From assembly GCA_023245355.1 (NCBI GenBank), contig JAHFKN010000002.1, positions 72,460 to 136,459 of the forward strand: a DNA stretch of 64,000 nucleotides, read 5' to 3'. Under the pieces are notes generated by a model. It searched no databases. It worked only from the letters and a program-made list of their open reading frames with translations, and was not told the origin of the DNA. Source of the DNA: Candidatus Gottesmanbacteria bacterium (GTDB lineage: Bacteria > Patescibacteriota > Microgenomatia > UBA10105 > UBA927). Of the stretch, positions 42,223 to 64,000 are shown in pieces (the first letter of the stretch is position 1; each line of letters opens with the position of its first letter). The position numbers were made by a program, and so were the translations under genes.

Positions 42223-42281
42223 ACAATAATCATTGTAGAGGTAAAAATTATAGTGTTCAATAGCACAAAGCGCATCAGGAC

Positions 42282-42311: not shown

Positions 42312-42446
42312 AAAGGAATAAATATGTTCGGGAAACTTAGGTCTGTGTATCTTGTGTTGTAAACAAAACAACATGGAGCCCGTACAAGGCGCATTAAAAA
42401 TTACACGCATAAACCTGATGGGTTTTATCTATGATAAGATAGCCTC

Positions 42447-44630: not shown

Positions 44631-44637
44631 CTCCCGT

Positions 44638-45192: not shown

Positions 45193-45268
45193 ACTCCCTT
45201 GTTCTTATGATGGGGACACGTTAGAATTAAGTTGAGCGCTGTTTATAGCGCGTCATTTCAATGCGTTT

Positions 45269-48904: not shown

Positions 48905-48947
48905 AGACTAAGGATAAGGAAAAGACAGAGGAAAAAGAAAGACGTCT

Positions 48948-50543
48948 TTAGTGTCCGCCGCCGCCGGTAATTGATCCGAGGCCCTTTTCAGCTCCCTCAC
49001 GCGCAACCTGCATAGATGATTTTGCCTCAGGTTTATGGCGGAACGCGCTGGCTATAAAGCTCGCCTGATATCCTAAGTTAAACAGCGTTCCGACTCCGGA
49101 TCCTAATGGCCCGACAATCGGGCCGACGCCTCCCGGAACTAACGGCTCAGCTTTGAGGGATTTTTGCAGTCCCTGGATGATCGTCGGGATAACCATGAGC
49201 ATGCCGAGTCCGATCAGTCCGGCCATGCCATACGTTCCTTCTCCGGTAGAAAGCAGCGGCGGTGCCCATATTTTGGTTGAAACATCCTGCGAGGTGAGAA
49301 CGGCCGTCACAAGCAGCAGAAGCACGGTGATAGGGAATACAAGGATTTTGGATAATAAATTTTTAAACCACGAGCTGAATGCGTTCGTTCCCGGAATGGC
49401 CTCCATCATCAGTTGAAACGGAGCGGTAAGGAGCGAAATGATAATGTTTATATACGCATCCAGAAGCATGAAGATGAGCCGGATCACGCCAAACAGCAGG
49501 ATAATCAGAAATATGACGGCCAGCAGCACCGGCCCCGTGGTTAATCCGAGCAGGGCTCCCCGCAGACCGAACATATAGCCGATGACGCCCGGGACGACTG
49601 TCCATCCGGCAATTTTCCAGGGATCATTCTGTGTAATCATGGCTCCGATATCATCGTACGCCTGGAATCCGCTGGCAAAGAAGAACCGCAGGAGTCCGCT
49701 GACGCCTCCGTTTAAGAGCAGTTTCGTCGCGTTTTCTACGGGAGCTGTCGTAGACGGGGGAGTAAAGCTTGGCGGCAAGGCGTCGATATTGAGTGTGGTC
49801 GCAAGACTTAATAATTTACCTAAGTTCCCTCCCGACGCACTGTCCACTGCTGATGCCGAAAGGACAATCGCAAGATACATAAGATCAATCATGGCGCCGA
49901 CGATGGCATAGGAAAATGTTACCAGCACCAATGCAATGACAATCCGCGGGATGGCGTTCTGAACGGTGACTACTGTTTTGGGATCGATTTTTTTCCGGAA
50001 CATCACCATAAATCCGACAACGATGATAATGATGGCCAGCAGGGCGTAGGCGATGTTACGGAAGACTTTCCATAGCGGCAGCATACTGGCCAGTCCGGAA
50101 AATCCTATTCCCTGTGCTTCTGCTTTTTTGGGCATAAATCCCAAGGTTCTGCCTACATCCGCGATGTACTCAGTACTCCGCGCAGGCGGATTCCGGTACA
50201 TGGCAAGCGTGCTTCTGGCAAGACCTGCCATGGCGCTTTTTTGATAGCTTAGTCCGATCGGGCATCCCGGTGAGGCGGCATCGCACAACCCGCGGAAACC
50301 GATAATGAGCTGACCCTGGCTCATGGTTGCGGTTCCGACGTCTCCTGCCTGCTTGTTGAGCGCACCTTCCGATGCCTTCATAAGTCCCGCCACAACACAG
50401 TTCATGTCCAGATACCACGTCGCATCATCACACTCTGCTCCCGGCACTGCCGGAGGATCAGCGGCCATAACACGGGAAGGGACCGCTAAGGCTGCAGTCA
50501 AAAGTAAGAGAAATGCGCTGATAAACAAAACTACGCGACGCAT
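48948..50543 (-). CDS. VirB6/TrbL-like polytopic T4SS membrane protein
   Basis: A signal peptide is followed by a Cys-containing extracytoplasmic domain and 6 or more TM helices. It lies directly downstream of the pilin genes. Confidence 0.5.
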   Translation of the reverse strand: MRRVVLFISAFLLLLTAALAVPSRVMAADPPAVPGAECDDATWYLDMNCVVAGLMKASEGALNKQAGDVGTATMSQGQLIIGFRGLCDAASPGCPIGLSYQKSAMAGLARSTLAMYRNPPARSTEYIADVGRTLGFMPKKAEAQGIGFSGLASMLPLWKVFRNIAYALLAIIIIVVGFMVMFRKKIDPKTVVTVQNAIPRIVIALVLVTFSYAIVGAMIDLMYLAIVLSASAVDSASGGNLGKLLSLATTLNIDALPPSFTPPSTTAPVENATKLLLNGGVSGLLRFFFASGFQAYDDIGAMITQNDPWKIAGWTVVPGVIGYMFGLRGALLGLTTGPVLLAVIFLIILLFGVIRLIFMLLDAYINIIISLLTAPFQLMMEAIPGTNAFSSWFKNLLSKILVFPITVLLLLVTAVLTSQDVSTKIWAPPLLSTGEGTYGMAGLIGLGMLMVIPTIIQGLQKSLKAEPLVPGGVGPIVGPLGSGVGTLFNLGYQASFIASAFRHKPEAKSSMQVAREGAEKGLGSITGGGGH

Positions 50544-50579
50544 ACGTTCATTATCCCGATGAAATCAATCAAAGTCAAT

Positions 50580-50900
50580 CTACTGTGTGATCGTAAAATC
50601 GGTGACTTTGACACCTGTAAAGGTTTCGATTGTGAGAATGATAAGGTAAGCAAGCGACATGATAACGATGCCGATAATCGCCTGTGTGACTGTGCCTTTG
50701 GCGGCCTCCAGTTTTTTCTGATCGCCGCCGGAAAAAAGGAAGTTAAACCCGCCGACAAGCAGCATGATAAAGAGTGCTACCGCACCCAGTGATACAACTG
50801 CCCTGATGACATTGGTAACAAGCGGAACCAGACACTGAATTGAAGCGACTCCCTGAGCCTCTGTAATGCCATAGCCCTGAGAACAAGCATCAGTGTTCAT
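50580..50900 (-). CDS. VirB2/TrbC-like T4SS pilin (paralog 1)
   Basis: It has a two-TM hairpin with the GGFNFLFSGGDQKKLEAAK loop motif shared by the family. Its own promoter is TTGTCA-17-TAATAA at 50910-50938. Confidence 0.6.
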   Translation of the reverse strand: MNTDACSQGYGITEAQGVASIQCLVPLVTNVIRAVVSLGAVALFIMLLVGGFNFLFSGGDQKKLEAAKGTVTQAIIGIVIMSLAYLIILTIETFTGVKVTDFTITQ

Positions 50901-50971
50901 ATACGGATATTATTACGTACTCCGGTAGGCTGTGACAAGAGCCCCCTTATGCTGCACGAAAGTTTTTCGGG

Positions 50972-51301
50972 TTAATACGGCTTCGGGAAGTTAATGGAGC
51001 CGCCGATAATCTGCACGCCCAGAAAGTTCTGGACAAGCGTCATTACCGCCCATGCGGAACCCACAATGATGAGTCCGACGATTGCGTGGGTAATTTTATT
51101 GCGGGCTTCCTCCATGCCGGCTTTGTCGCCGCCTGAGGTAATCCATTTAATGCCTCCCAGGATGAGGTAAAGAAAGGCGAGTAAGGCTGCGATGATAAGA
51201 ACGGTGCCGACGAGGGCACTGATCAATTTACCGATGTCGGTAATTTTGATCGTATCCGGCTGTTTGACATCAAGAGCTGCTTGGGCAAATACTTTCTGCA
51301 T
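50972..51301 (-). CDS. VirB2/TrbC-like T4SS pilin (paralog 2)
   Basis: It has LGGIKWITSGGDKAGMEEARNKITHAIVGLIIVG. The ATG at 51301 is used because the tracked start at 51319 is TTG. Confidence 0.6.
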   Translation of the reverse strand: MQKVFAQAALDVKQPDTIKITDIGKLISALVGTVLIIAALLAFLYLILGGIKWITSGGDKAGMEEARNKITHAIVGLIIVGSAWAVMTLVQNFLGVQIIGGSINFPKPY

Positions 51302-51334
51302 AATCAATCCTTTCGTCAAATCAATACAACCTTT

Positions 51335-51363
51335 ATTATACCTTACTTACCATTCTTGCGCAA
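51335..51363 (-). promoter_or_regulatory. sigma70-like promoter TTGCGC-17-TATAAT upstream of pilin paralog 2
   Basis: The hexamers were read on the minus strand. They lie about 30 nt upstream of the ATG at 51301. Confidence 0.4.
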
Positions 51364-51384
51364 GAAAACGGGATTTGTCAACAC

Positions 51385-51726
51385 TTAGTTGCCGATTGTC
51401 GGAATCGGAAGATTGGGGAAATCCAACCCCAGGAAATTACTGACAATCATCATGACTGCCCAGGATGCGCCCACTACAACCAGCCCGATTAACGCATTGG
51501 TGATTTTGTCCCGTGCAGACTGAAGTTTGGCTTTGTCGCCCGCGCTTGTGACCCAGTCAAGACCACCCAGGAACATATAGAGGAGTGCCGATATAAACGC
51601 CAGAATCAGAAATACGCCGACGATTGAGCTGATAAGCGACCCGATGATCGGAGGACCGGCCTCTTTTCCGCCCGAACCGAGTGCGCCGGGAAGTACGGGA
51701 TTGATAATTTGTGCAAGTTGGTGCAT
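51385..51726 (-). CDS. VirB2/TrbC-like T4SS pilin (paralog 3)
   Basis: It has LGGLDWVTSAGDKAKLQSARDKITNALIGLVVVG. Confidence 0.6.
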   Translation of the reverse strand: MHQLAQIINPVLPGALGSGGKEAGPPIIGSLISSIVGVFLILAFISALLYMFLGGLDWVTSAGDKAKLQSARDKITNALIGLVVVGASWAVMMIVSNFLGLDFPNLPIPTIGN

Positions 51727-51732
51727 AACAGA

Positions 51733-52101
51733 TTATTGATTCGGACTGAGTTGTTCGAGCAATCCTCCGGGATTTGCCAGCGTGAAGTCAAATCCGAAAA
51801 ATACGCTTACGAGCGCTAAAATTGCCCAGCTGGCTACGACGATAATGAGTCCGATAAGCGAATTTGTGAGTCTGTCCCGTGCAGACTGAAGTTTGGCTTT
51901 GTCGCCGCCTGCATTAATCCAGTTAAAGCCACCGATAATAAACTGAAACAGGAACCATATTCCTGCGGCAACAGTCATGATGCCGATGACAGAGGAAACC
52001 AGTTTTGTAATACCGGTGATTCCGTCTCCTGCTGATTCGCCGAACGGACCCAGTCCCGCGCCTCCTATTTGTCCCAACGATACCTGAGCTAGCTGTTTCA
52101 T
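51733..52101 (-). CDS. VirB2/TrbC-like T4SS pilin (paralog 4)
   Basis: It has IGGFNWINAGGDKAKLQSARDRLTNSLIGLIIVV. It is 6 nt upstream of paralog 3. Confidence 0.6.
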   Translation of the reverse strand: MKQLAQVSLGQIGGAGLGPFGESAGDGITGITKLVSSVIGIMTVAAGIWFLFQFIIGGFNWINAGGDKAKLQSARDRLTNSLIGLIIVVASWAILALVSVFFGFDFTLANPGGLLEQLSPNQ

Positions 52102-52105
52102 ACAA

Positions 52106-52441
52106 TTATTGTCCCGGTCCGTATATCACCGGGTTCAGGATATAGTCTGCCCGGCCGAAAATAAGATATCCGAACAGTGATGCGAGGGCAAATGATCCGA
52201 CGATGATGATAAGTCCCAAAAGTGACTGCCAAATTCTGCTCCACGCTTCAGAAAGTTTTTTGGAATCGCCGGCCGCGTTCATATAGCTATAGCCGGCAAT
52301 GATAAAGTTCATGAGGGCATAGACACCTGCCGCCACGAAAAAGAGGCGGAGAATATTGGTAATAAATAATCCGATTCCTCCCACTCCAGCATAGCTGGTT
52401 CCTTCAAGCGGATTTTGTACCTGTCCGACGATTTGTTCCAT
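52106..52441 (-). CDS. VirB2/TrbC-like T4SS pilin (paralog 5)
   Basis: It has IAGYSYMNAAGDSKKLSEAWSRIWQSLLGLIIIVG. Confidence 0.55.
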   Translation of the reverse strand: MEQIVGQVQNPLEGTSYAGVGGIGLFITNILRLFFVAAGVYALMNFIIAGYSYMNAAGDSKKLSEAWSRIWQSLLGLIIIVGSFALASLFGYLIFGRADYILNPVIYGPGQ

Positions 52442-52454
52442 AATGATGCCGGCT

Positions 52455-52766
52455 TTAAAAGCCCACAGGACTCAATATTTGTTTTCCGGTAACGACTTCG
52501 ATGATTTGTATGATCCAAAATGATCCTAATACCAGAAGCAGCCCCGTAATAGCGCCGGTGATGGCTGTTTTGCCCTGCTGTGCTTTTTTTGCGTCTCCCG
52601 CCGCTACTATAACGTTAAATCCGCCGAAAATCAATAAAATAAAGCTGATAATACCCGCTAAAACGAATGCATTTTTGACGATTGCCGTGACCACCATTCC
52701 GTAGGTTGTCAGCTCGGGGTTGGGGGCAAGATCCTGTAATGACTCTGCAAATACGCGCTCAATCAT
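52455..52766 (-). CDS. VirB2/TrbC-like T4SS pilin (paralog 6)
   Basis: It has FGGFNVIVAAGDAKKAQQGKTAITGAITGLLLVLG. The ATG at 52766 is used because the tracked start at 52808 is TTG. Confidence 0.55.
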   Translation of the reverse strand: MIERVFAESLQDLAPNPELTTYGMVVTAIVKNAFVLAGIISFILLIFGGFNVIVAAGDAKKAQQGKTAITGAITGLLLVLGSFWIIQIIEVVTGKQILSPVGF

Positions 52767-52833
52767 ATCTATACTAGTAAGTGTAGGGAATTTGCCCGAG
52801 CACGTCAATTATGCTAAAGTAACCCTCATCCCC

Positions 52834-53373
52834 ATGAATGACGCAGCTCTTATTGCCCGTTTGTTTGCTCATGACCGGCGCACGGCAGCCTCTTTTTACC
52901 AGCAATACGCACCGCAACTGCGGCGCCACATCCTTTCAAAAGTAAAAACGGCCGAAGATGCGGAAGAAATACTTCAGGATACGCTGTTTTCGTTTTTGGA
53001 AGGACTCCGGGATTTTCGCGAACATTGCAGTGTCAGGACATACCTTTTTTCTATCTGCCACCATAAGATCATTGATTATTACCGGAGGAAAAAAATCAGC
53101 CATTTCGTGTTTTCACAGCTCCCTCAGCTGGAAACACTCGTCTCTCCGCTGTTAGGACCGGAGGCAGAACTGGATTCCGTGCTTATAAAAGAAAAAATCC
53201 GTACGGTATTTGCCCGGCTGATTCCGGTGCACCGGCAGGTATTGATACTCAAGTATCTGGAACGTGCTTCGGTAGAGGAAATTGCTGACAAGCTCTCTAT
53301 TACGTTTAAAAGCGCGGAATCGAGGCTGTTTCGGGCCCGCAGAGCGTTTGTGGAGCTTTTTCTTTCCATATAA
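52834..53373 (+). CDS. ECF-type RNA polymerase sigma-70 family factor
   Basis: It has region 2 (ILQDTLFSFLEG...) and region 4 (LILKYLERASVEEIADKLSITFKSAESRLFRARRAF). Confidence 0.7.
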   Translation: MNDAALIARLFAHDRRTAASFYQQYAPQLRRHILSKVKTAEDAEEILQDTLFSFLEGLRDFREHCSVRTYLFSICHHKIIDYYRRKKISHFVFSQLPQLETLVSPLLGPEAELDSVLIKEKIRTVFARLIPVHRQVLILKYLERASVEEIADKLSITFKSAESRLFRARRAFVELFLSI

Positions 53374-53375
53374 CT

Positions 53376-53606
53376 ATGAGTGATGTAACGTACCAAAAGT
53401 TTGTCAAACGATGGGAGGAGGTAACCGATATTCCTCCGCAGACGTTCGGTCCGCTGACAGGCGTATATAAACAGCTTACGAAGCGGCTCAAAGTTATGCC
53501 GTGGCCGTGGTTTGTGATCGCCGGTATCGGATTCGTGCTTATGCTGTATGTGCTTATCGGCTCGGCAATTACGATGCTCACAACCATTCTTCAAAACAGC
53601 TTCTGA
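53376..53606 (+). CDS. small single-TM protein, putative anti-sigma factor
   Basis: The 76-aa product has one TM helix and lies 3 nt downstream of the ECF sigma gene. Confidence 0.4.
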   Translation: MSDVTYQKFVKRWEEVTDIPPQTFGPLTGVYKQLTKRLKVMPWPWFVIAGIGFVLMLYVLIGSAITMLTTILQNSF

Positions 53607-53659
53607 TATATGGCACTCCGGTTTTTTAAACAGCGGATTTAGGCTGGCAGCGCGGGTTT

Positions 53660-54310
53660 TTGTCCGATGTTGCGACTACCATATTAATGGACATATTGAG
53701 CGTACTTATTGTGGATGCCGTCGCGTTTGGCCGTACCGTCATAGGGATTATGACGCGGCCGTATGAAACGTACCGGAGGATCAGCAGCAAAGGAAAATCC
53801 GGGGAACTTCTGTATATTTTTGTAGTATTGGGTGTATATTTTGCGCTGGCAAGTATTGTAAAGGTGGCTGCATTCCGGCCGTTTTTGCTGACGCAGCAAT
53901 TTGTCGTCCTGTTTGCCGGGGCGCTAAGCGGAGCGCTTGTATCAACAGGGATCATTTTTATCGCGGGCCGGCTGTTTGGGGCCCGCGCGGCATTTATTCC
54001 GCTTCTGGTTGCCTGGTCATACACGCTCATTCCGACCGTCGTATGGTTTTTTGCCACGTCGCTCCTCTACGTATTATTGCCTCCGCCCCGAACTACCAGC
54101 GTTCCGGGGATTCTGTTCAGTCTGCTGTTTTTGGCGTTTTCCGCAACACTTTTGGGATGGAAAGTCACGCTTTCCTACCTTACGCTCCGGTTCAGCCTGA
54201 GGCTAAATTTCGGAAAAAGCATGCTGGTTGCGGCGGTATGTGCGCCGGTCGTTGCCGCATGGGCGTATGCCATGTATAAAACAGGAATATTTAAGGTGCC
54301 ATTTTTATGA
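53660..54310 (+). CDS. Yip1-domain-like polytopic membrane protein
   Basis: It has 5 TM helices and an N-terminal RPYETY region. Confidence 0.4.
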   Translation: MSDVATTILMDILSVLIVDAVAFGRTVIGIMTRPYETYRRISSKGKSGELLYIFVVLGVYFALASIVKVAAFRPFLLTQQFVVLFAGALSGALVSTGIIFIAGRLFGARAAFIPLLVAWSYTLIPTVVWFFATSLLYVLLPPPRTTSVPGILFSLLFLAFSATLLGWKVTLSYLTLRFSLRLNFGKSMLVAAVCAPVVAAWAYAMYKTGIFKVPFL

Positions 54311-55473
54311 ACGTACGGGATTTTTCATCAGCTGATGAGCGCAGGAAGGCCGTGGAAAAGGAGTTGTCCGTCGAGCTTACGCATATCGGCTCGTATAGCC
54401 TTGATGCTGGTGTTGCCGGGACACGCAACTGCGAGAATATGATCGGAGCGGCCCAGATACCCATGGGCGTAGCCGGCCCGCTCACTCTAACGACTGTTAA
54501 CGGGAAGAGCAATACCTACTATCTTCCGCTTGCCACGACAGAAGGGGCGCTTGTCGCGTCGGTTAACCGCGGGTGCAAAGCGATAACTGTAAGCGGGGGC
54601 GCAACAGTTGATAGCCATAGGGTAGGCGCGACCCGGGGCCCGGTATTTAAAGTTGCTAATCTTTCGGAAAACCGGAGATTGCATGAGTATTTAGAAGGGC
54701 ACTTTTCCGAACTCAAGGAGATAACAGAGAAAACTTCGCGCCATCTTACGCTCAAAAAGATCACATCCCGGGGGGTGGGCCTGTATCGGTTTGTCAGGTT
54801 TGTATATGACACCCAGGATGCCATGGGTCTTAATATGGTGACCATCGCAACAGATGCTGCATGCCGGTATATAGAAGAACAAACAGGGAACACCTGCGTT
54901 GCCCTTTCCGGAAATTTTTGTGTCGACAAAAAAGCTTCGTGGCAAAACTTCGTAAGCGGCAGGGGAACCAAAGTGTGGGCAGAGGTAGTGCTGCCGGCGG
55001 AGGTTTTGCGGGGAGTGTTAAAGACTGATGCCCACAAGGCATACGGAACGTGGCTGGCAAAATGTATGCTGGGAAGTGCTGTGAGCGGTTCGATCGGATT
55101 TAACGGGCAGTTTGCCAATGTGGTAGCAGCTCTTTTTATCGCGACAGGGCAGGATCCGGCGCACGTGGTGGAAGGCAGCCTCGGAGTAACCACGGCTGAA
55201 GTGGTTAATGGGAGTGATTTGTATGTAAGCGTATACCTGCCGGACCTTATGGTCGGAACGGTGGGAGGAGGGACGACGCTCGCAACCCAGCACGAAGCAC
55301 TTAGTATGCTTGGTGTGGCAGGGGCTTCCCCGGAGGGGAAACACGGAAAAAATGCGCAAACACTTGCAGAGATTGTCGGCGGTGCCGCACTGGCAGGAGA
55401 AATTTCCCTTTTGTCATCCCTTGAGCAGGGAACGCTCGCGCAGGCACACAATAAGCTTGGGAGAGGCAAATAA
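54307..55473 (+). CDS. hmgA: hydroxymethylglutaryl-CoA reductase (NADPH), class I, short archaeal-type
   Basis: Motifs ENMIG, TTEGALVAS, DAMGLNM and GTVGGGT are present. Confidence 0.85.
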   Translation: MNVRDFSSADERRKAVEKELSVELTHIGSYSLDAGVAGTRNCENMIGAAQIPMGVAGPLTLTTVNGKSNTYYLPLATTEGALVASVNRGCKAITVSGGATVDSHRVGATRGPVFKVANLSENRRLHEYLEGHFSELKEITEKTSRHLTLKKITSRGVGLYRFVRFVYDTQDAMGLNMVTIATDAACRYIEEQTGNTCVALSGNFCVDKKASWQNFVSGRGTKVWAEVVLPAEVLRGVLKTDAHKAYGTWLAKCMLGSAVSGSIGFNGQFANVVAALFIATGQDPAHVVEGSLGVTTAEVVNGSDLYVSVYLPDLMVGTVGGGTTLATQHEALSMLGVAGASPEGKHGKNAQTLAEIVGGAALAGEISLLSSLEQGTLAQAHNKLGRGK

Positions 55474-55474
55474 T

Positions 55475-56518
55475 ATGGTCGGTATCATTTCCTACGGCAC
55501 GTATATTCCGAAATACCGCATCCGTATCGCGGATATTGCGGCAGCATGGAAAAAAGACGTTGAAGAAGTAGTCCGTTCGTTAGGACTCACGGACAAGTCC
55601 GTTCCGGGATTTGATGAAGACGCCGCAACGATTGCCATTGAAGCCGCTTTGGAAAGTCTGTCCGTATTTTCCGGCACGGCAAGCGACATCGACGTGTTGT
55701 TTGTCGGAAGCGAAAGCCATCCGTACGCGGTAAATCCGACGTCAACAACCGTCGGAGAATTATTGGGAGTCGGACACGAATATCTGGCGGCTGATATGGA
55801 ATTTGCCTGTAAAGCCGGAACAGCCGCCATACAGGCGATCGCGGGCCTTGTTGCCGCCGGACATGCCGGGCTTGGTATGGCAATAGGAACGGATACGGCG
55901 CAAGGCAAGCCGCATGATTTTTTGGAATATACGGCTGCAGCCGGAGGAGCTGCTTTTTTGATCGGGAGTGAACACATCGCCGCAAAATTGTTGGCAGATA
56001 CGTCCTATTCGTCTGACACACCGGATTTTTGGCGCCGTGACGGCATGCGGTACCCTTCACATGCGGGCAGATTTACGGGGGAGCCTGCATATTACAGCCA
56101 CGTGATGGGCGCGGCTACGAGGTTGTTGGAGATGACTAATACAAAACCCACTGATTATGCGTATTGTATTTTCCACAGTCCGAACGGCAAATTTCCCCGG
56201 GAAGTAGCACGGAGATTGGGATTTACATCCGCGCAGCTGGCGCCGTCATTGCTGGTGGATCATATCGGGAATGCGTATTCGGCGACTACCATGCTGGGGC
56301 TTGCCGCAGTACTCGATATCGCAAAACCGAATCAAAAAATATTTATGGTTTCCTACGGATCAGGGGCAGGAAGTGATGCGTTCGTCTGGGAAACGACCCC
56401 AGACCTTGTGCGTTTACAGAAAGCAAAAACAAAAACCAAACAACGCGTGATGGATCAGGTAAGCCGGAAAATATACGTGGATTACGTCCAGTTTTTGAAA
56501 TTAACCCATAAACTATGA
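55475..56518 (+). CDS. hydroxymethylglutaryl-CoA synthase (archaeal-type)
   Basis: It has a thiolase-like fold with the Cys in MEFACKAGT. GGAGAGG lies 9 nt upstream of the ATG at 55475. Confidence 0.85.
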   Translation: MVGIISYGTYIPKYRIRIADIAAAWKKDVEEVVRSLGLTDKSVPGFDEDAATIAIEAALESLSVFSGTASDIDVLFVGSESHPYAVNPTSTTVGELLGVGHEYLAADMEFACKAGTAAIQAIAGLVAAGHAGLGMAIGTDTAQGKPHDFLEYTAAAGGAAFLIGSEHIAAKLLADTSYSSDTPDFWRRDGMRYPSHAGRFTGEPAYYSHVMGAATRLLEMTNTKPTDYAYCIFHSPNGKFPREVARRLGFTSAQLAPSLLVDHIGNAYSATTMLGLAAVLDIAKPNQKIFMVSYGSGAGSDAFVWETTPDLVRLQKAKTKTKQRVMDQVSRKIYVDYVQFLKLTHKL

Positions 56519-57654
56519 AACTGTTTGTAACAGGGGCAGCAACAACCAAATTCGGTGAACTATGGAATGCGTCTCCGCGCGGGCTTGCGCGCCACGCGGT
56601 GTTTGAGGCACTCAAAGATGCAGAAACTCTTCCATCTTCCGTGGAGGCATTGTTTGTGGGAAACATGCTTTCCGGAATGTTAGGGGGCCAAGAGCATCTC
56701 GGTGCGTTTTTTGCGGAAGAATTGGGGTTAACTGTTCCGGCATTTAAAGTGGAGGGAGCCTGCGCGTCTGGAGGCTTGGCGCTTCACAATGCCGTAAACA
56801 GTTTGTTAAGCGGACAGTATACGACGGTTGCGGTATTGGGGATAGAAAAAATGACTGATCATAAACCGGAAGATGTTGCGACGGCTCTTATGGGGGCAGG
56901 AAGTGAGGAAGAGAGAAGCGCCGGGGCAACATTTCCGGGGCTGTACGCAATACTTGCACGCGTACATATGCGCGAGTTCGGCACGACCGAAGAAGATCTC
57001 GCCGCCGTGGCCGTCAAAAATCACCTGCATGCCAGTCTCAATCCGAACGCTCAGTTTCATAACACGCTGACGGTCGAGCAGGTGATGAAAAGCAGCAGGA
57101 TAGCCGACCCGCTGAAGCTGCTGGATTGTTCACCGATTTCCGATGGTGCCGCAGCGGTTATCCTGAGTATCCATAAAACGCAAAGAGGAGTGGAATTGTC
57201 CGCCTCTGCGGTAGCAACGGACACGCTGGGGTTAGCACAGAGGAAAGATCTTACCCAGCTTGCTGCTACACGTGATGCATCCCAAAAAGCATATGCGATT
57301 GCAGGGGTAACCGAAGCCGATATTGATGTTGCCGAAGTGCATGACTGTTTCACGATTGCCGAGGTGCTTGCTATGGAGGATTTGGGATTTTTCCCCAAGG
57401 GAAAAGCGGCAGCGGCTATTGCCCAGGGAAAAACGACGGTAGGGAATGGCAAACATGTGGTTGTGAATCCGTCGGGCGGCCTGAAGGGGTGCGGACACCC
57501 GGTCGGAGCTACCGGAGTAAAGCAAATTGTCGAGTTGGTAGATCAGCTCCGGGGAATTGCCGGGAAGCGGCAAGTGTCCGGTGCGCGCGTCGGGCTTGCC
57601 CATAATGTCGGAGGGAGCGGGGCTACCGCAGTCATTCATATATTGAAAAAATAA
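56515..57654 (+). CDS. acetyl-CoA C-acetyltransferase (thiolase, archaeal-type)
   Basis: It has the active-site Cys in GACASGGLAL and the C-terminal motifs NPSGGL and GHPVGATG. Confidence 0.85.
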   Translation: MKLFVTGAATTKFGELWNASPRGLARHAVFEALKDAETLPSSVEALFVGNMLSGMLGGQEHLGAFFAEELGLTVPAFKVEGACASGGLALHNAVNSLLSGQYTTVAVLGIEKMTDHKPEDVATALMGAGSEEERSAGATFPGLYAILARVHMREFGTTEEDLAAVAVKNHLHASLNPNAQFHNTLTVEQVMKSSRIADPLKLLDCSPISDGAAAVILSIHKTQRGVELSASAVATDTLGLAQRKDLTQLAATRDASQKAYAIAGVTEADIDVAEVHDCFTIAEVLAMEDLGFFPKGKAAAAIAQGKTTVGNGKHVVVNPSGGLKGCGHPVGATGVKQIVELVDQLRGIAGKRQVSGARVGLAHNVGGSGATAVIHILKK

Positions 57655-57656
57655 AT

Positions 57657-57959
57657 ATGCAAAGTCCGGTAAAAATTTGGAGAAATCAGAAAAATATTGC
57701 CGCATTGGTCGGTAAAACAGGCACGATTATTTCGTGGACCATCGTGCGTGTGCCGCCGGGGGATTTTACGGATCAGGCGCCGTATCCGGTGGTGCTCATT
57801 GAGATGGAAGACGGAAAACACGTGACATGTCAGATGGTTGATTATGACGTCAGTGATCTTTCCGTAGGGCAACGCGTTATAACGATTGTCCGCCGGGTAA
57901 CCCACCCGGATGCAGACGGGGTGATTCCGTACGGCATCAAAGCAAAACCACTCGTATGA
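57657..57959 (+). CDS. DUF35 OB-fold/Zn-ribbon scaffold protein of thiolase/HMGCS complex
   Basis: It is 100 aa with an OB-fold signature, immediately after the thiolase gene as in archaeal mevalonate operons. Confidence 0.7.
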   Translation: MQSPVKIWRNQKNIAALVGKTGTIISWTIVRVPPGDFTDQAPYPVVLIEMEDGKHVTCQMVDYDVSDLSVGQRVITIVRRVTHPDADGVIPYGIKAKPLV

Positions 57960-58897
57960 AAAAAATTATTGTTTCTGTACCTGGAAAAGTTCATCTCATG
58001 GGAGAGCATGCCGTGGTGTATGGAAAACCAGCATTACTTGCTGCAATCAATTTGCGACTGTCTGTTTCCATCGAACCGGCTAAGAAATTTGAAATTATTT
58101 CTACTGAGCCTACGGATCACGCGCAATGCGCGGTAGATTATTTACTTGGTCAATTCAAAGTTAAAAAATATCCTTTGATAAAAATTACCATTGATTCACA
58201 GATTCCGGCAGGATTTCATTTAGGTTCATCTGCGGCTGTGGCAGTTGGATTATCGGGTGCCATGATGTATTTTTTCAAAAAACTCTGGAATCCAATTCGG
58301 ATAAATGAATTAGCGTATGAAATTGAAAAGAAACAACACGGTAATCCTTCAGGCGGTGATAACACGACAGTAACAGTTGGAGGATTTGTGTGGTTTCGGA
58401 AAGAATTGGAGTTTTTGAAAAGCATCTGGCAGCTTACGTTTAAACCTCATGCTTCACTTAACCATTTTTTTCTTATTAAGACGAAGCGTCCATCAGAGAC
58501 TACCGGAGAAATGGTTGCACTCGTACGCGATCAGTACACAAAGAATCAAAAGAAAATCGAAGAATTGTTGAATCTCAATGAGCAGCAAGCGAAGCGTGTG
58601 ACAGTCGCGCTTAAGGAAGGGAACGAAGCAGCGCTTCTTGACGCTATTTGTATTGGCGAGTCAACGCTTGAGGGAATGGGAGTGGTGAGCGCAAAGGTTA
58701 CACCGCTTATACGTTCGATAGAAAAGAATGGGGGAGCGGCAAAAATATTAGGTGGTGGTGGAAAAGAAGATGGTGTAGGTTTTTTGCTTTGTTATCATCA
58801 TGAGCCAAAGCGCATTGACAAGATGTGCAAAAAGTATGGTTATGAGATTCGCTCCGTTGCACTTGGTGAAGACGGGGTGCGTTTAGAAAAACGATAA
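57956..58897 (+). CDS. mvk: mevalonate kinase (GHMP kinase)
   Basis: VPGKVHLMGEHAVVYGKPALLAAI and the GHMP motif PAGFHLGSSAA are present. Confidence 0.8.
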   Translation: MKKIIVSVPGKVHLMGEHAVVYGKPALLAAINLRLSVSIEPAKKFEIISTEPTDHAQCAVDYLLGQFKVKKYPLIKITIDSQIPAGFHLGSSAAVAVGLSGAMMYFFKKLWNPIRINELAYEIEKKQHGNPSGGDNTTVTVGGFVWFRKELEFLKSIWQLTFKPHASLNHFFLIKTKRPSETTGEMVALVRDQYTKNQKKIEELLNLNEQQAKRVTVALKEGNEAALLDAICIGESTLEGMGVVSAKVTPLIRSIEKNGGAAKILGGGGKEDGVGFLLCYHHEPKRIDKMCKKYGYEIRSVALGEDGVRLEKR

Positions 58898-58899
58898 CT

Positions 58900-59712
58900 A
58901 TGTCTCTTCAAGAACGACAACCCAAAATATCTCACGGGCTTATTCATTCATATGAACAAAGAGATTTTGCTACTGGACCAAAGACATATTCAGACGAACG
59001 CTTGTTTGATGTAATTGATACGGCCTCTGGGTTGAAAGGAAATAGAGAGCGTCAAGTAGTTGCTGATATGATGTCTGGGCCCGGCAATGTTGGATTAGCC
59101 TTATATGCACGACACCCTGAGCACACATATTATTTTATCGATTTAGCAAATAAACAGCTGCAAAAAATTTCAGCCGATAAACTTAATTGCATAAAGATAC
59201 AGGGAGATATTCGGAAATTGCCAATTTCAGATAATACATTTGATGTAGCTGTTGCGCGGTACGCGATAAAAGATTTGCCACAAGATGAACAATCAATTGC
59301 ACTGGCGGAAATATTCCGTACGTTAAAACCCGGTGGAGTATTTGTGTTAACTGACATGGTATCGCCAAGCGATGAAACGAAATCATGGCTCAATGCTCAG
59401 CATGCGAAAAAGCAGGAATTATCTGGCCGGCAGAAAAGCGAAGGGGTCTGTCATATCCCAACAGAGAAAGAATGGTTACATGTTTTGTCTCAAGCAGGAT
59501 TTAAGCCCGTAGTCGAAGGATATTCGACAAGTTATGTATCGACTGATGACTGGGTGAAGGGGAAGCAAATAACATCAGAGCAAGCGTCTGTATTAAACGA
59601 AATGATAATTCATGCACCATTATATATTCAAAAAGCGTTTACTATTCGAAATGACAAAGGTGCTGTTACGATTGAATATCCAGTGGTAATCATTAAAGCA
59701 ATAAAATTATGA
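58900..59712 (+). CDS. class I SAM-dependent methyltransferase embedded in mevalonate operon
   Basis: Methyltransf_11-like motifs DMMSGPGNVGL and LKPGGVFVLTD are present. Confidence 0.65.
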   Translation: MSLQERQPKISHGLIHSYEQRDFATGPKTYSDERLFDVIDTASGLKGNRERQVVADMMSGPGNVGLALYARHPEHTYYFIDLANKQLQKISADKLNCIKIQGDIRKLPISDNTFDVAVARYAIKDLPQDEQSIALAEIFRTLKPGGVFVLTDMVSPSDETKSWLNAQHAKKQELSGRQKSEGVCHIPTEKEWLHVLSQAGFKPVVEGYSTSYVSTDDWVKGKQITSEQASVLNEMIIHAPLYIQKAFTIRNDKGAVTIEYPVVIIKAIKL

Positions 59713-59719
59713 TGCGGTT

Positions 59720-60694
59720 ATGAATATGAACGTCACTGTATCAGCTCCAGGAAAACTCATGGTATTTGGAGAACATGCCGTCGTGTATAATCGCCCGTGT
59801 TTGGTGACGGCGGTTGATCAGCGTATGCGTGCAAGGGTTGAGCTTACGGATGATAAGGTATTTTTCCTCGATGCTCCAGAGGTCAAGATATCTGGGTATG
59901 CACGACCAATAAGAGAAGTAGGAATGGGTGAAATACCCAAAGGCGCGAAGTTTGTGGAGATCGCGGTTAAGAATTTTATAGAAAACTATCCATCCTCCTC
60001 GGGTATAAAAGTAACCACTGCATCAGATTTTTCTTCTCAATTCGGGTTTGGCTCATCGTCTGCCTCTACCGTTTGTGTGCTTAGAGCGTTGTCGGAATTA
60101 ACGGGTAAAAAGTTAGATAATAAACAGCTGTTTGATTTGGCATATAAAACCGTTCTTGATGTGCAGGGAAAAGGATCGGGATTCGATGTGGCTGCAGCAC
60201 TTTATGGCGGGACGTTGTATTTTGTCGCTGGTGGAAAAACGATTACGCCTGTAAAACTTCGTGATATTCCTCTTGTCGTTGGATACACAGGTGTCAAAGC
60301 AGATACTGTTACGCTTATGCGTGAAGTTGGAGAAAAGATGAAGGCACAGCCGGAGCGTATCGATAGAATTTATGATGCGATCGTAAAGCTTGTCGAAGAC
60401 GCCCGAATAAAGATGATTGAAGGTGATTGGGAGAGGGTGGGAAAGCTTATGGATTTTAATCAGGAATACCTTCGTGATTTGGGGGTAAGTTCAGAAAAAC
60501 TAGAATCACTTATTTCATCTGCAAAAGGAGCAGGCGCGTGGGGGGCAAAGCTGTCGGGTGCCGGAGGAGGGGATTGTATGATTGCATTAGCGCCAGAAGA
60601 CAAGAAAAAAGCAATAGAGTCTGCCATAGAAATCGCAGGTGGACAAGTTATTCACATTTTACCCCACGCACAGGGAGCGAGGTTGGAACTATGA
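59720..60694 (+). CDS. second MVK-like GHMP kinase (putative phosphomevalonate kinase)
   Basis: It has APGKLMVFGEHAVVYNRP and the GHMP motif GFGSSSAS. Confidence 0.6.
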   Translation: MNMNVTVSAPGKLMVFGEHAVVYNRPCLVTAVDQRMRARVELTDDKVFFLDAPEVKISGYARPIREVGMGEIPKGAKFVEIAVKNFIENYPSSSGIKVTTASDFSSQFGFGSSSASTVCVLRALSELTGKKLDNKQLFDLAYKTVLDVQGKGSGFDVAAALYGGTLYFVAGGKTITPVKLRDIPLVVGYTGVKADTVTLMREVGEKMKAQPERIDRIYDAIVKLVEDARIKMIEGDWERVGKLMDFNQEYLRDLGVSSEKLESLISSAKGAGAWGAKLSGAGGGDCMIALAPEDKKKAIESAIEIAGGQVIHILPHAQGARLEL

Positions 60695-61668
60695 AAGCTA
60701 CCGCAAAAGCGCCGGCAAATATCGCATTTATCAAATATTGGGGCAAAGCCGATGACACGCTCCGGTTGCCGCTTAACGATTCGATTTCCATGAATATGTC
60801 GGGAGCCTACACCATTACGACTGTCGAGTTTTCGAAGCAGTTCAAAAAAGATTCCGTAACGCTTGTAGGAGGCGAATTTTCCGAGGAGGAAACAGCACGT
60901 GTTATCAAGGGATTAGACCTGATCCGGAAACGGGCGGGAAGCACACAAAAAGCAACTGTCGTCACGAAAAATACATTTCCCAAAGGGGCGGGGTCGGCAG
61001 CGTCTGCCTCCGGATTTGCCGCACTTACCGTGGCGGGATTTGCTGCACTTGGGGTGACCTTGTCGGAAAAGGAGCTGACTATTTTTGCCCGCATGGGGAG
61101 CGGGTCTGCATGCCGGAGTATTCCCGACGGATTTGTGGTTTGGGAAAAAGGGGATAGCAGTAAAACGTCGTTTGCCTGGTCTTTATACCCGCCTACTCAT
61201 TGGGATATCCGGGATATTCTGGTTATTGTGGACAGCCGTATGAAAAAAGTTTCAACGACCGAGGGCATGGAAACGGTTGCGACCAGTCCGCGCCTTGCGG
61301 TGCGTCTGAGAGCAATTCCCCGGCGCATGAAAGAAATACAGCAGGCGATAGCTACGAAAAATTTTTCCCGGTTCGGTGAAATTACTGAGGAGGATTGTCT
61401 TGGCATGCATATGGTGATGCAGACGCAAACCCCGCCGTTATTTTATTGGAACAGTACGACACAAACTATTATGGAAGCAGTCAGGGATTGGAGAAAGCAC
61501 GGGTTACCGGTATACTTTACGATTGACGCGGGTCCCAACGTGCATCTTTTGTGTGAAGGAATAGATGAGGAACGGGTTCTTGCGGCGGTAAAAACAATCG
61601 GAGGCGTAGAAGCAACTATCGTGAATAAGCCGGCCATAGGAACAAGGATAATTTCGGAGCATTTATGA
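60691..61668 (+). CDS. diphospho-/phosphomevalonate decarboxylase family (MVD/PMD)
   Basis: It has APANIAFIKYWGK and GAGSAASASG. There is an ATGA overlap with the upstream kinase gene. Confidence 0.8.
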   Translation: MKATAKAPANIAFIKYWGKADDTLRLPLNDSISMNMSGAYTITTVEFSKQFKKDSVTLVGGEFSEEETARVIKGLDLIRKRAGSTQKATVVTKNTFPKGAGSAASASGFAALTVAGFAALGVTLSEKELTIFARMGSGSACRSIPDGFVVWEKGDSSKTSFAWSLYPPTHWDIRDILVIVDSRMKKVSTTEGMETVATSPRLAVRLRAIPRRMKEIQQAIATKNFSRFGEITEEDCLGMHMVMQTQTPPLFYWNSTTQTIMEAVRDWRKHGLPVYFTIDAGPNVHLLCEGIDEERVLAAVKTIGGVEATIVNKPAIGTRIISEHL

Positions 61669-62342
61669 AACATATTCCGCAGCATATAGCCATCATTATG
61701 GACGGGAACCGCAGATGGGCACGCAAACTCGGGTTACCGGTCCTTTCCGGGCACCAGAAGGTCGCAGATGAGGTGCTGGAACCGTTAGTGGAACATGCGG
61801 CCAAACGCGGCGTCCGGTTCATTACATTTTGGGCATTTTCTACCGAAAACTGGCAGCGTGAGAAAAGCGAGGTGGAGGGAATCATGCGTATTTTCCGTCA
61901 TGTTATCGGTAAACGTTGGCAGCGGCTGCACGAGAAGGGGGTGCGGGTGCGCGTGATCGGTGATATTTCCAAATTTGCACCGGACATCCGTGATTCTTTA
62001 AAAAAAGTGATCGAGCAGACGAAAGACAACCGGAAAATTACGGCGATTTTTGCCTTGAATTACGGCGGGCGCGACGAGATAGTGCGTGCGGTACGTAAGC
62101 TGGACAGAACAAAGACAGTAGAGGAACCGGATCTTTCCGCGGTGTTGGATACGGCCGGTATACCCGATCCGGAATTGATTATCCGTACGGGGGGCGAGCA
62201 GCGGTTAAGCGGTTTTCTGTTGTGGCAAAGCGAGTACAGCGAACTGTATTTTCCGTCTTTTTATATGCCGGAATTTACCCCTGAAAAACTGGATGAAGCG
62301 ATAGAAGAATACGCGTCCCGACAGCGGAGATTCGGGAAGTAA
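61665..62342 (+). CDS. uppS: undecaprenyl-diphosphate synthase (isoprenyl transferase)
   Basis: IAIIMDGNRRWA and RTGGEQRLSGFLLWQ are present. Confidence 0.85.
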   Translation: MKHIPQHIAIIMDGNRRWARKLGLPVLSGHQKVADEVLEPLVEHAAKRGVRFITFWAFSTENWQREKSEVEGIMRIFRHVIGKRWQRLHEKGVRVRVIGDISKFAPDIRDSLKKVIEQTKDNRKITAIFALNYGGRDEIVRAVRKLDRTKTVEEPDLSAVLDTAGIPDPELIIRTGGEQRLSGFLLWQSEYSELYFPSFYMPEFTPEKLDEAIEEYASRQRRFGK

Positions 62343-62354
62343 CGGATACGAGGC

Positions 62355-62705
62355 TTACTGGCCGAAAATCTGGAAGATGCTTTGCCAGCCCAAAATTGTT
62401 CCTATAATCTGAACAATCCAGAATGCGCCGAATACCAGCATAAATCCGATAATGGCGTTGGTAAGCGCTCCTTTTCCCGCGGCAAGTTTTTTGGCGTCTC
62501 CGGCTGAGAGCATGACCGTAAATCCGCTGCTGATGATCATCAGAAGCAGTCCGATTCCTGCAGCGGCAAAAATATATGAAAGGGATTGCCCCACAATGGT
62601 GCCGATGGAGTCGCTGCCGAATTTGAAGTCTGTCGGACCCTCGATTTTGATTCCCGATCCGCCGTTTCCCTCGATATTGATGATTTGGGCAAGGAGTTTA
62701 TGCAT
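62355..62705 (-). CDS. VirB2/TrbC-like T4SS pilin (paralog 7)
   Basis: It has ISSGFTVMLSAGDAKKLAAGKGALTNAIIGFMLVFG and the N-terminus MHKLLAQIIN, like paralogs 3 and 4. Confidence 0.55.
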   Translation of the reverse strand: MHKLLAQIINIEGNGGSGIKIEGPTDFKFGSDSIGTIVGQSLSYIFAAAGIGLLLMIISSGFTVMLSAGDAKKLAAGKGALTNAIIGFMLVFGAFWIVQIIGTILGWQSIFQIFGQ

Positions 62706-62707
62706 AA

Positions 62708-63172
62708 CTAGCCACTGGAAAATCCCGGTAACTGTAATATATCCACTCCGACGAGGCGAAGCAAGAATATGGAGAAAATAATCAGCAATAGCCCTGAGAT
62801 TGCAGCCGTCATGAGATCCTTGGCTTCATGGAGTTTTTCCGGGTTTCCGGCGCTTGTAATGCGTTGAAATCCGGAAACAAGGATAAGCAGGAACGCGACC
62901 CCTCCGCCTAATCCGGTTCCGAGCCTGATAAATGATGCGATAAAGTCGCTTGGTGTTTCTCCTCCGAAACAGCCGAGCGCCGTCCACGCGCCGCCTCCGT
63001 CAAAACAGGATTTGCATGCGCCGTTTTGCGTCGTAACCGATTTGCACGCTGCTTCTCCTACGGATTGATCGACGACCGCGTCGGCGTATACCACGCTTCC
63101 CGCAAGCGGAAATGCCGGGATGGCAAGGAGGGTTGCGAAAAACAAAGATAGCGACAGAACAGCCCGTTTCAT
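62708..63172 (-). CDS. pilin-like protein with signal peptide and Cys-rich insert (paralog 8)
   Basis: It has VSGFQRITSAGNPEKLHEAKDLMTAAISGLLLII. A signal peptide is followed by an extra Cys-rich 60-aa segment. Confidence 0.45.
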   Translation of the reverse strand: MKRAVLSLSLFFATLLAIPAFPLAGSVVYADAVVDQSVGEAACKSVTTQNGACKSCFDGGGAWTALGCFGGETPSDFIASFIRLGTGLGGGVAFLLILVSGFQRITSAGNPEKLHEAKDLMTAAISGLLLIIFSIFLLRLVGVDILQLPGFSSG

Positions 63173-63252
63173 GCCTTTACAGTGTAGCAAATCCGGCAAA
63201 ATAAGAAAAGCAGGCTGGTTGTCTCTGCCGGTCTGGTACAATGGTAGAACTC

Positions 63253-64000
63253 ATGAAGTTTTCCCGATTTTTTATTATTTTTTTGCTGGTTGTTGTGGGG
63301 ATATCCTCTCCTGTACGGATATATGCGGAATCTTGCGATTCAAATTGTGCAAATACGGATGATCAATGCTTCGCCCGTAAACTTATAGAGTGCAATAAGG
63401 ATCTTAAAATGATTCAGGATGCGAAACAGCCGCATGTTGCGACGTTGAAAAAATTGGAAGCAAATATAGCCGCATTTACCGCCCAGCTTGAAATGATAGC
63501 CGTAGATCTTCTAAAAAAGTCAAAAGCGATTAAAGAAGAAGAAAAGCAGATGCAGGACATAACCATTCTTGCTGACAGAAAAATTGTCATGCTCTATAAA
63601 AGATCATTAACGTACAATCCTTTGTTGCCGTTTTTGACTTCGGTAAATGTCGGGAGTGTTATACGGTCATTTGCATACCAACAGCAACTTATTGATAGGG
63701 ACAAACAATCGATCGTGCAGGCAGCGATTTTTATCCAGGATTTACAAAAAAGGAAGAAGGAGCTTGAATCAAAACAAGCAAATATCGCCTCTCTCAATTC
63801 AGAATTGGATATCCGGGCAGCGTCGGTAAGAAAATTAGTTGAGGAAGCAACGGCATACGAGAACAAATTGACTAACGTCATCGCAACCCTTTCCGCCGCG
63901 CAACAGGCATTTTTGGCAAATAAACTTTCGGGATTGGGAATTCCGCTTTACGCATTAAGCGGCGGGGGTTGTTCGAGCGATCTTACCAACGGTAAGAATC
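63253..64000 (+). CDS. secreted coiled-coil protein (EnvC/murein-hydrolase-activator-like N-terminus), 3' end is outside the window
   Basis: The frame is open from the ATG at 63253 to the window edge. A signal peptide is followed by heptad-rich sequence. It is absent from the ORF track because no stop lies in the window. Confidence 0.4.
   Translation, partial: MKFSRFFIIFLLVVVGISSPVRIYAESCDSNCANTDDQCFARKLIECNKDLKMIQDAKQPHVATLKKLEANIAAFTAQLEMIAVDLLKKSKAIKEEEKQMQDITILADRKIVMLYKRSLTYNPLLPFLTSVNVGSVIRSFAYQQQLIDRDKQSIVQAAIFIQDLQKRKKELESKQANIASLNSELDIRAASVRKLVEEATAYENKLTNVIATLSAAQQAFLANKLSGLGIPLYALSGGGCSSDLTNGKN

Follow-up and report, generated by a model that had tools for sequence, protein, structure and literature searches.

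A mevalonate pathway operon of Gottesmanbacteria with a methyltransferase gene between its two mevalonate kinase-like genes

Results

A nine-gene operon common to Gottesmanbacteria

We analyzed a 64-kb stretch of contig JAHFKN010000002.1 from a Candidatus Gottesmanbacteria bacterium (the whole stretch is called the window below), which carries an operon for the mevalonate (MVA) pathway at positions 54307-62342. Open reading frames (ORFs) together with Pfam and NCBIfam models place nine tightly packed genes there, all on the + strand and separated by overlaps or by gaps of at most 8 nt. Their order is HMGR, HMGCS, thiolase, DUF35, K1, MT, K2, DC and UppS (Table 1), K1 and K2 being GHMP kinases, MT a methyltransferase and DC a decarboxylase; the limits and the order given in the initial annotation, made from the sequence alone, are confirmed. 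Two starts were set: HMGCS truly begins at 55475, where the ORF start was 55310, and DC at 60691.

Related loci were collected by scanning one genome per GTDB species, and tblastn was used to place the window proteins on the 80 loci that the scan returned. The titles of these loci mostly name Candidatus Gottesmanbacteria, Microgenomates or Patescibacteria, and the same names are attached to the closest (60-82% identity) of more than 2,700 homologues of K1. The order Yip1-HMGR-HMGCS-thiolase-DUF35-K1-K2(-NUDIX)-DC-UppS is common to about 55 Gottesmanbacteria-type species loci. In Gottesmanbacteria the Yip1 gene is conserved as the one that opens the cluster, and it lies 5' of HMGR in nearly all related loci. 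The flanks are kept as well, with type IV secretion system (T4SS)-pilin paralogues, the ECF sigma factor and the 76-aa ORF upstream, and pilins, SpoIID and SmpB downstream; the T4SS-pilin genes that flank the operon are typical of the Candidate Phyla Radiation (CPR). The GC content at third codon positions (GC3) of the upper-pathway genes equals that of the rest of the window. Since the same order and the same flanking genes recur in about 55 Gottesmanbacteria species, the operon appears to have been inherited rather than recently transferred. As a side observation, the public records of many contigs with an unmistakable Gottesmanbacteria operon bear the title "uncultured Gammaproteobacteria bacterium" (L006-L008, L010, L012, L015 and others), apparently by mislabelling.

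This agrees with the passages available to us of Hoshino & Gaucher 2018 (PMC6107057), which describe a CPR MVA cluster with synteny of archaeal acetoacetyl-CoA thiolase (AACT), HMGR-I, MVK, PMVK, DPMD, IDI-I and cis-IPPS. According to these passages, the CPR MVA enzymes form CPR-specific clades congruent with the CPR species tree, and the cluster is inferred to be ancestral to CPR. A literature search on Gottesmanbacteria and mevalonate found no papers.

An imported segment within the operon

Within this conserved frame, one segment has a different history. By blastn, the related locus L092 is 92.5% identical to the window over 51868-58033 and 88.2% identical over 60131-63272, while 58034-60130 shows no similarity to it except for one 99-nt patch at 73%. 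In L092, K1 is directly followed by K2, with no MT between them. GC3 of the window genes falls to 0.35 in K1, 0.31 in MT and 0.38 in K2 against 0.51-0.58 in the flanking operon genes, whereas all operon genes of L092 lie near 0.50-0.60. Among the loci compared, the best nucleotide match of the segment is an MT-bearing Gottesmanbacteria locus, L085 (72% over 2 kb). The similarity gap against L092, the low GC3 and the match to L085 together point to import of a cassette by homologous recombination. The K1-MT-K2' cassette would have arrived from a lower-GC Microgenomates donor, one crossover lying within the conserved ~26 codons at the start of K1 and the other near codon 137 of K2.

K1 accordingly exists in two deeply divergent forms, which are 42% identical (L092:6086-7036 and window 57956-58897), although the flanking operon proteins of the two loci are 95-99% identical. 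GC3 of the L092 form is native, and no other K1 in the set is more than 44% identical to it.

A methyltransferase family tied to mevalonate operons

A word-indexed search found 17 clusters of the MT family, and an exhaustive profile search among 1.84 billion representatives gave 71 representative clusters at E<=1e-30, about 31 of which look orthologous. Genomic context was considered for seven members inspected directly and for seventeen further loci of the family found in a metagenome scan. In 23 of the 24 bacterial loci, at 36-73% identity and in several Microgenomates lineages including Levybacteria, MT is part of an MVA operon, and it directly adjoins K1 in all 20 loci that could be resolved, in either order (K1-MT or MT-K1). 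The exception is L110, where a 37%-identical homologue without MVA neighbors is flanked by an HTH-TPR protein and a protein of unknown kind. An archaeal homologue, 35% identical, lies about 600 bp from genes for isopentenyl phosphate kinase (IPK) and for proteins like mevalonate 3-kinase (M3K), mevalonate bisphosphate decarboxylase (MBD) and mevalonate-3-phosphate 5-kinase (M3P5K), that is, a Thermoplasma-type lower pathway. The archaeal contig (L093:1218-6512, L094) also encodes AlaXM, and its compact lower MVA cluster is adjoined by the MT homologue and an IS200-type Y1 transposase. By tblastn at E<=1, neither MT nor a remnant of it turned up in the roughly 55 related operons.

That a methyltransferase stands in the middle of the operon had been annotated, and it is a genuine gene: the intact ORF, the conserved SAM motif, the confident fold and the conserved context rule out a random insertion or pseudogene. 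The AlphaFold2 (AF2) model has a pLDDT of 91, and its nearest folds are BH2331 and YcgJ (TM 0.70-0.74). Invariant basic residues of the family are R21, R120, K124, H168, K171 and R177, with which a phosphorylated or carboxylated substrate would fit. We also considered homology to the methyltransferases of geranyl or isopentenyl diphosphate (GPP/IPP), for which profile and Foldseek searches gave no support: no GPP methyltransferase chain appeared at E<=1e-3 with the family profile or in the top 50 Foldseek matches. Nor does MT replace isopentenyl diphosphate isomerase (IDI), since L096 has both MT and a K2-NUDIX fusion; several other MT operons have a NUDIX gene nearby.

Two side observations concern the family and its site. 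Distant homologues of MT are found as C-terminal domains of Ser/Thr protein kinases (P0208, P0223, P0235, P0246, P0252, P0257 and P0264; E 1e-19 to 1e-31 against the family profile). The interval holding the kinases, decarboxylase and UppS also has other inserts in relatives (L087:9782-10600, L091:6068-7012 and L085:5483-6870), the types being a HAD hydrolase, a 314-aa sigma70_r4-like protein, and a TrmB-like protein with an unknown ORF.

Two kinases of mevalonate kinase type

K1 and K2, which are 23% identical, both carry the GEHAVVY motif and both pass the mevalonate kinase (MVK) model TIGR00549 (Table 1). The phosphomevalonate kinase (PMK) models stay far below cutoff (on K1, TIGR01220 gives 45 bits against 166 and NF040957 38 bits against 500), so the description of two MVK-type kinases, neither of them a canonical PMK, holds. 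K2 matches the M. mazei MVK 6mde over its full length at 8e-43, and the kinases of the Chloroflexi loci retrieved are closer to K2 than to K1. Chloroflexi reportedly possess MVK and lack PMK (PMC6107057, in the passages available; Dellas 2013). Given the full-length archaeal match and the better match to the Chloroflexi kinases, K2 is probably the mevalonate kinase. K1 belongs to a family largely confined to Gottesmanbacteria and Microgenomates, and Foldseek finds an MVK-like fold in its AF2 model. Discrimination between MVK and PMK was attempted for K1 with NCBIfam, PDB sequence search, AF2 and Foldseek; all gave MVK-like results, and PMK was not favored. By pathway logic, K1 would be a fast-evolving MVK paralogue that supplies the PMK step, in line with the label "PMVK" used by Hoshino & Gaucher.

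Residues 130-157 of K1 form the most invariant stretch of its family (GNPSGGDNT..GG..WFRKELEFLKSIWQ), and the AlphaFold pLDDT is below 50 there while the rest of the model is confident. K2 has no C-terminal IDI-like NUDIX domain here or in the closest relative, whereas about half of the related operons have a C-terminal K2-NUDIX fusion (L003:10954-12420, L004:10938-12362 and about 25 other loci). The best model for the fused domain is PRK03759 (IDI) at 90 bits, below its cutoff of 127; the fusion amounts to one of mevalonate kinase and isomerase.

A mosaic decarboxylase

DC passes the model of mevalonate diphosphate decarboxylase (MDD; Table 1), and the model of phosphomevalonate decarboxylase (PMD), NF040704, gives 161.7 bits against a cutoff of 475. 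Its PDB matches are the Anaerolinea PMD (6n0z/6n0x) at 1e-85 and, as best MDD, an entry at 3e-63; the nearest structure is that of the Anaerolinea thermophila phosphomevalonate decarboxylase (Aoki 2022, PMC9254496). The key residues are Y16, K19, R25, S137, S139, R142, T189, T190, M193 and D279. By Table 4 of Dellas 2013, Tyr16, Lys19, Ser137 and Ser139 are MDD-like; M193 and D279 are also rated MDD-like and T190 PMD-like, and the catalytic Asp279 is present.

Exactly two residues separate the Anaerolinea entry 6n0z from the wild-type 6n0x, an N-to-K change in YWGx and an H-to-M change in xGx. DC carries K and M at these positions and scores higher against 6n0z. According to Aoki 2022 (PMC9254496), mutagenesis by Thomas et al. 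turned the specificity of a PMD into that of a DMD. The entry 6n0z would be the mutant in question. The position equivalent to Lys21 is always basic in the DC family (K in 46, R in 11), unlike in the Chloroflexi PMDs, which have Asn or Leu. From these residues we read DC as a putative diphosphomevalonate decarboxylase.

As a separate observation on the family, the catalytic-Asp motif DAGPN, which the window has, is replaced by NTGQD (Asp to Asn) in 10 of 57 Microgenomates DC orthologues (L028, L035, L042, L045, L053, L086, L087, L088, L090 and L091), half of these ten being in MT-bearing operons. Loss of the catalytic Asp is reported to turn MDD homologues into 3-kinases.

Steps absent from the window

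The Pfam scans covered about 50 of the window ORFs with 150 aa or more, the operon genes among them; they left out the 1211-aa and 531-aa ORFs at 45269-50543, whose counterparts in relatives have no Pfam match on record. No domain of the AA_kinase (IPK), NUDIX, FMN-IDI or polyprenyl_synt type turned up among the ORFs scanned, and neither did the aconitase-like phosphomevalonate dehydratase or the UbiD-type decarboxylase of the Aeropyrum-type pathway through trans-anhydromevalonate phosphate. A tblastn search of the 64-kb window with five NUDIX/IDI-like proteins and a farnesyl diphosphate (FPP) synthase from relatives also found nothing, and the inspected related operons have no AA_kinase gene either. 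The annotated lack of IDI and IPK in the window thus stands by the Pfam scans and, for IDI, also by tblastn. IDI and FPP synthase are presumably encoded elsewhere in the genome.

An archaeal-type upper pathway

HMGCS, thiolase and DUF35 each find their best PDB match in one of the three chains of the archaeal complex 6ESQ (6esq_I at E 2e-108, 6esq_A at 1e-90 and 6esq_E at 3e-13, respectively), and the triad is archaeal in kind, as had been proposed. The bacterial mvaS model TIGR01835 gives HMGCS 104 bits against a cutoff of 360, and the class II HMGR model TIGR00532 gives HMGR 50 bits against 260; the operon is not of the Firmicutes type, which would combine an mvaS-type HMGS with a class II HMGR (mvaA). 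The catalytic tetrad E-C-H-N of HMGCS is intact (E80, C112, H234, N267), and the thiolase has the motifs CxS (C83-A-S), HDxF (H276-D-C-F) and GHP (327). A 2026 study (PMC12960953) found the HMGS tetrad and the thiolase motifs CxS, HDxF and GHx to be essential in the archaeal complex.

The DUF35 call also holds, with a correction: the protein has only 100 aa and is missing the N-terminal zinc ribbon. Its residues 19-99 align to the OB part of the 130-aa chain 6esq_E (residues 50-128), and it has a single Cys; the OB-only alignment and the single Cys together indicate that the ribbon is absent. In relatives, the orthologous gene calls that were inspected have lengths of 74-107 aa. Judging from the genes, the CPR version of the channeling complex would use a DUF35 protein without a zinc ribbon.

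Surroundings of the operon

A T4SS-like cluster lies at 36171-53000 and 62355-63241, encoding a TraG/VirB4-type P-loop ATPase, a VirD4/TrwB-like coupling protein, a PrgI-like protein, an M23 peptidase and large proteins without Pfam match. At least seven small single-pass T4SS-pilin paralogues belong to it and stand on both sides of the MVA operon, and relatives are arranged alike. The genes dnaA (32508-33872) and dnaN (34057-35163) coincide with a sign change of the GC skew at about 34 kb, so the window probably spans the replication origin. A glycan-assembly locus at 4582-32409 holds several GT2/GT4 glycosyltransferases, WecG/TagA, a DegT aminotransferase, a GFO/IDH oxidoreductase, WbqC, a carbamoyltransferase, two Wzy_C proteins, an ABC-2 exporter pair and two methyltransferases. 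Some 22 kb, with the origin (dnaA/dnaN) and the T4SS-like cluster, separate this locus from the MVA operon. The operon had been proposed to feed undecaprenyl carriers for this locus: the link to UppS is sound, being conserved in relatives and described in PMC6107057, while the tie to the large glycan locus, at ~4.5-32 kb of the window, is generic. A promoter and terminator scan of 52400-62800 gave nothing above shuffle expectation, and a tRNA scan found none in the window.

Table 1. Features of the mevalonate operon and its immediate upstream neighborhood (window coordinates).
Feature	Position	Strand	Evidence or remark
ECF-type sigma-70 factor	52834..53373	+	Sigma70_r2/r4_2 domains; identical contig L001; same place in L003, L004, L092
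76-aa ORF	53376..53606	+	No Pfam match on record; between sigma factor and Yip1; L001, L003, L004, L092
Yip1-domain membrane protein	53687..54310	+	PF04893 1e-9; 4-nt overlap with HMGR start
HMGR, class I (NADPH)	54307..55473	+	PF00368 7e-118; TIGR00533 408 bits vs TIGR00532 50
HMGCS, archaeal type	55475..56518	+	NF003274 473 bits, TIGR00748 425 bits, both above cutoff
Acetoacetyl-CoA thiolase, archaeal type (SCP-x-like)	56515..57654	+	NF004720 460 bits, above cutoff
DUF35 protein, 100 aa, OB fold only	57657..57959	+	PF01796 2.6e-14
K1, divergent MVK-like GHMP kinase	57956..58897	+	TIGR00549 166.6 bits (cutoff 163)
MT, class I SAM-dependent methyltransferase	58900..59712	+	Methyltransf_25/11/31 domains
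K2, putative mevalonate kinase orthologue (GHMP kinase)	59720..60694	+	TIGR00549 201.8 bits (cutoff 163)
DC, mevalonate (di)phosphate decarboxylase homologue	60691..61668	+	TIGR01240 273 bits (cutoff 171)
UppS, undecaprenyl-diphosphate synthase (cis-prenyltransferase)	61665..62342	+	PF01255 4e-73; TIGR00055 232 bits (cutoff 110)
Recombinant low-GC segment	58034..60130		K1 from ~codon 27, whole MT, K2 to ~codon 137

Discussion

Based on our findings, we propose that this is the resident, vertically inherited MVA operon of Gottesmanbacteria, with a classical lower route and an imported MT cassette; we put the probability of this whole explanation at about three in four. The core operon is already known from the literature, and the new element here is MT. 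From homology and motifs, thiolase, HMGCS and the OB-only DUF35 protein, the counterparts of the archaeal channeling complex, would make HMG-CoA from acetyl-CoA, and the class I HMGR would reduce it to mevalonate. From pathway logic and residues, K2 would phosphorylate mevalonate, K1 would then carry out the phosphomevalonate kinase step, and DC would convert mevalonate 5-diphosphate to IPP. UppS, translationally coupled to DC, would build the lipid carrier on which cell-wall and glycan assembly depend, undecaprenyl diphosphate.

The lower route itself is probably the classical one from MVK through PMK to MDD. Several points weigh against this picture. Both kinases score as MVK and neither reaches the cutoff of any PMK model, and the fold of K1 does not separate MVK from PMK. 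In DC, Arg25 and Thr189 are PMD-like (Dellas 2013 Table 4), a Thr stands at the equivalent of Arg193 of the S. epidermidis MDD, and the nearest solved structure is a PMD. The Met of the Lys/Met pair varies among DC orthologues (M in 23, H in 24, Q in 9), and the view of 6n0z as a switched mutant is drawn from its two sequence differences. The structural neighbors of MT are uncharacterized proteins. Finally, with no IDI or FPP synthase found in the window, a complete route to undecaprenyl diphosphate is not evident there.

As for the role of MT, it would methylate a metabolite of the lower pathway, and we infer that this is most likely one shared by the pathway variants: mevalonate or its phosphates, or isopentenyl phosphate (IP), IPP or dimethylallyl diphosphate (DMAPP). 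Only tentatively do we go further and suggest that the K1-adjacent MT is a dedicated lower-MVA enzyme of CPR and some DPANN-like archaea, methylating mevalonate, phosphomevalonate or IP/IPP/DMAPP. It is likewise doubtful, if conceivable, that MT is a passenger with no isoprenoid role, e.g., an RNA, protein or detoxification methyltransferase carried by recombination among MVA operons. Such a passenger would suit the generic small-molecule methyltransferases of no known function that are its fold neighbors, the ~55 related operons that presumably work without MT, the other inserts that the kinase-decarboxylase interval takes in relatives (e.g., the HAD hydrolase and the sigma-like protein), and the fusion of distant family members to Ser/Thr protein kinases. 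It is harder to reconcile with the bacterial contexts, in which MT keeps to the MVA operon in all loci but one and adjoins K1 wherever this can be resolved, in two orders and down to 36% identity, or with the archaeal homologue beside lower-MVA genes of a different pathway type. This persistence across rearrangements makes hitch-hiking hard to credit.

A variant lower pathway, which the initial annotation had raised as a possibility, is an unlikely reading. DC would then be a PMD as in Chloroflexi; K2 would make mevalonate 5-phosphate, DC would turn it into isopentenyl phosphate, and either an IPK whose gene lies elsewhere or K1, as a GHMP-type isopentenyl phosphate kinase, would carry out the second phosphorylation. 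The closeness of DC to the Anaerolinea PMD, its PMD-type Arg25 and Thr189 and the failure of both kinases to exceed the PMK cutoffs can be taken this way, as can the Microgenomates IPK homologues without known role noted in the passages available of Hoshino & Gaucher (PMC6107057). Against it, the MDD model is passed while the PMD model, at 162 bits, remains far below its cutoff, and the Lys21-equivalent position is always basic, unlike that of the Chloroflexi PMDs. Moreover, no AA_kinase gene was found in the scanned window ORFs or the inspected related operons, and nearly every one of these operons keeps a pair of GHMP kinases, in accord with MVK plus PMK.

A recent horizontal acquisition of an archaeal pathway by a bacterium, as the initial annotation had it, is very improbable: although the upper-pathway proteins best match archaeal models and the complex 6ESQ, it is contradicted by the order and flanks conserved in ~55 Gottesmanbacteria species, by the native composition of the upper-pathway genes, by the published CPR clades congruent with the CPR species tree and the ancestry of the cluster in CPR proposed there (PMC6107057, in the passages available), and by the fact that the sole compositional anomaly, the K1-MT-K2 segment, has its best nucleotide match among the loci compared in a Gottesmanbacteria locus and not in an archaeal one. 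The description of the pathway as archaeal in type is apt for the upper half, with its archaeal models and 6ESQ matches, and does not extend to the lower half, which is a set of the MVK, PMVK and DPMD type.

With the inherited operon and its imported cassette as our preferred explanation, the locus is a compact and well-delimited example of the CPR mevalonate pathway, the biochemistry of which is called key to reconstructing early isoprenoid evolution in the passages available of PMC6107057. It also shows cleanly how a kinase-methyltransferase cassette is exchanged between CPR lineages through homologous recombination. The association of a rare methyltransferase family with lower-MVA genes in Microgenomates and on at least one archaeal contig suggests that the synthesis of isoprenoid precursors includes an unrecognized modification step or control point. 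If MT were indeed a dedicated enzyme, there could be methylated (C6) isoprenoid units or a methyl-masked intermediate in the primary lipid-carrier synthesis of organisms with reduced genomes, and K1 could be a kinase adapted to a modified substrate. The Lys/Met pair of DC, which separates two crystal forms of the Anaerolinea PMD, makes a natural test of the determinants of PMD and MDD specificity. The MVA-linked MT family with its cassette-like mobility, the mosaic decarboxylase and the DUF35 protein without zinc ribbon are absent from the passages of the literature that were examined.

Comparison with known systems

The closest known system is the CPR MVA cluster of PMC6107057, with which the operon shares the archaeal-type AACT, HMGS, the class I HMGR, MVK, a second, MVK-like kinase labelled PMVK, a DPMD homologue, the synteny with a cis-prenyltransferase and a Microgenomates host. 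Unlike the cluster described in the passages available of that paper, the window has no IDI-I and has MT between its two kinases; the DUF35 gene, the loss of its zinc ribbon and the methyltransferase go unmentioned in those passages.

In the upper half, the complex of Methanothermococcus thermolithotrophicus (6ESQ/6ET9; Vögeli et al. 2018) is matched by three adjacent genes with intact catalytic motifs. The DUF35 protein of the window differs from its archaeal counterpart by having no rubredoxin-like zinc ribbon, and those of relatives are equally short.

The lower half resembles the classical MVK-PMK-MDD pathway in its two GHMP kinases, its MDD homologue above cutoff, the catalytic Asp and the Lys21-equivalent. 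It departs from that pathway in that its presumed PMK is a paralogue of MVK and shows no affinity to the known PMK families, and in that DC, closest to a Chloroflexi PMD, has the PMD-like Arg25 and Thr189. With the MVK-PMD-IPK pathway of Chloroflexi and haloarchaea (Dellas 2013; 6N0X) it has in common the DC backbone, closest to the Anaerolinea PMD, and some phosphate-site residues, but no IPK was found in the window and a second GHMP kinase is present. DC has Lys and Met where the Anaerolinea PMD itself has Asn and His, and its score on the PMD model is far below cutoff.

MT is comparable to BH2331 and YcgJ (1VL5 and 1XXL, entries without assigned function), with which it shares a Rossmann core and a C-terminal beta-sheet domain, the profile reaching E 6e-17 to 1VL5. 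It is only ~20% identical to them, and the MT family has an invariant N-terminal motif of its own, Y..R....GP.TY, together with the motifs W.N..H..KQ, EG.C.I.T and T.DW and a context specific to MVA operons.

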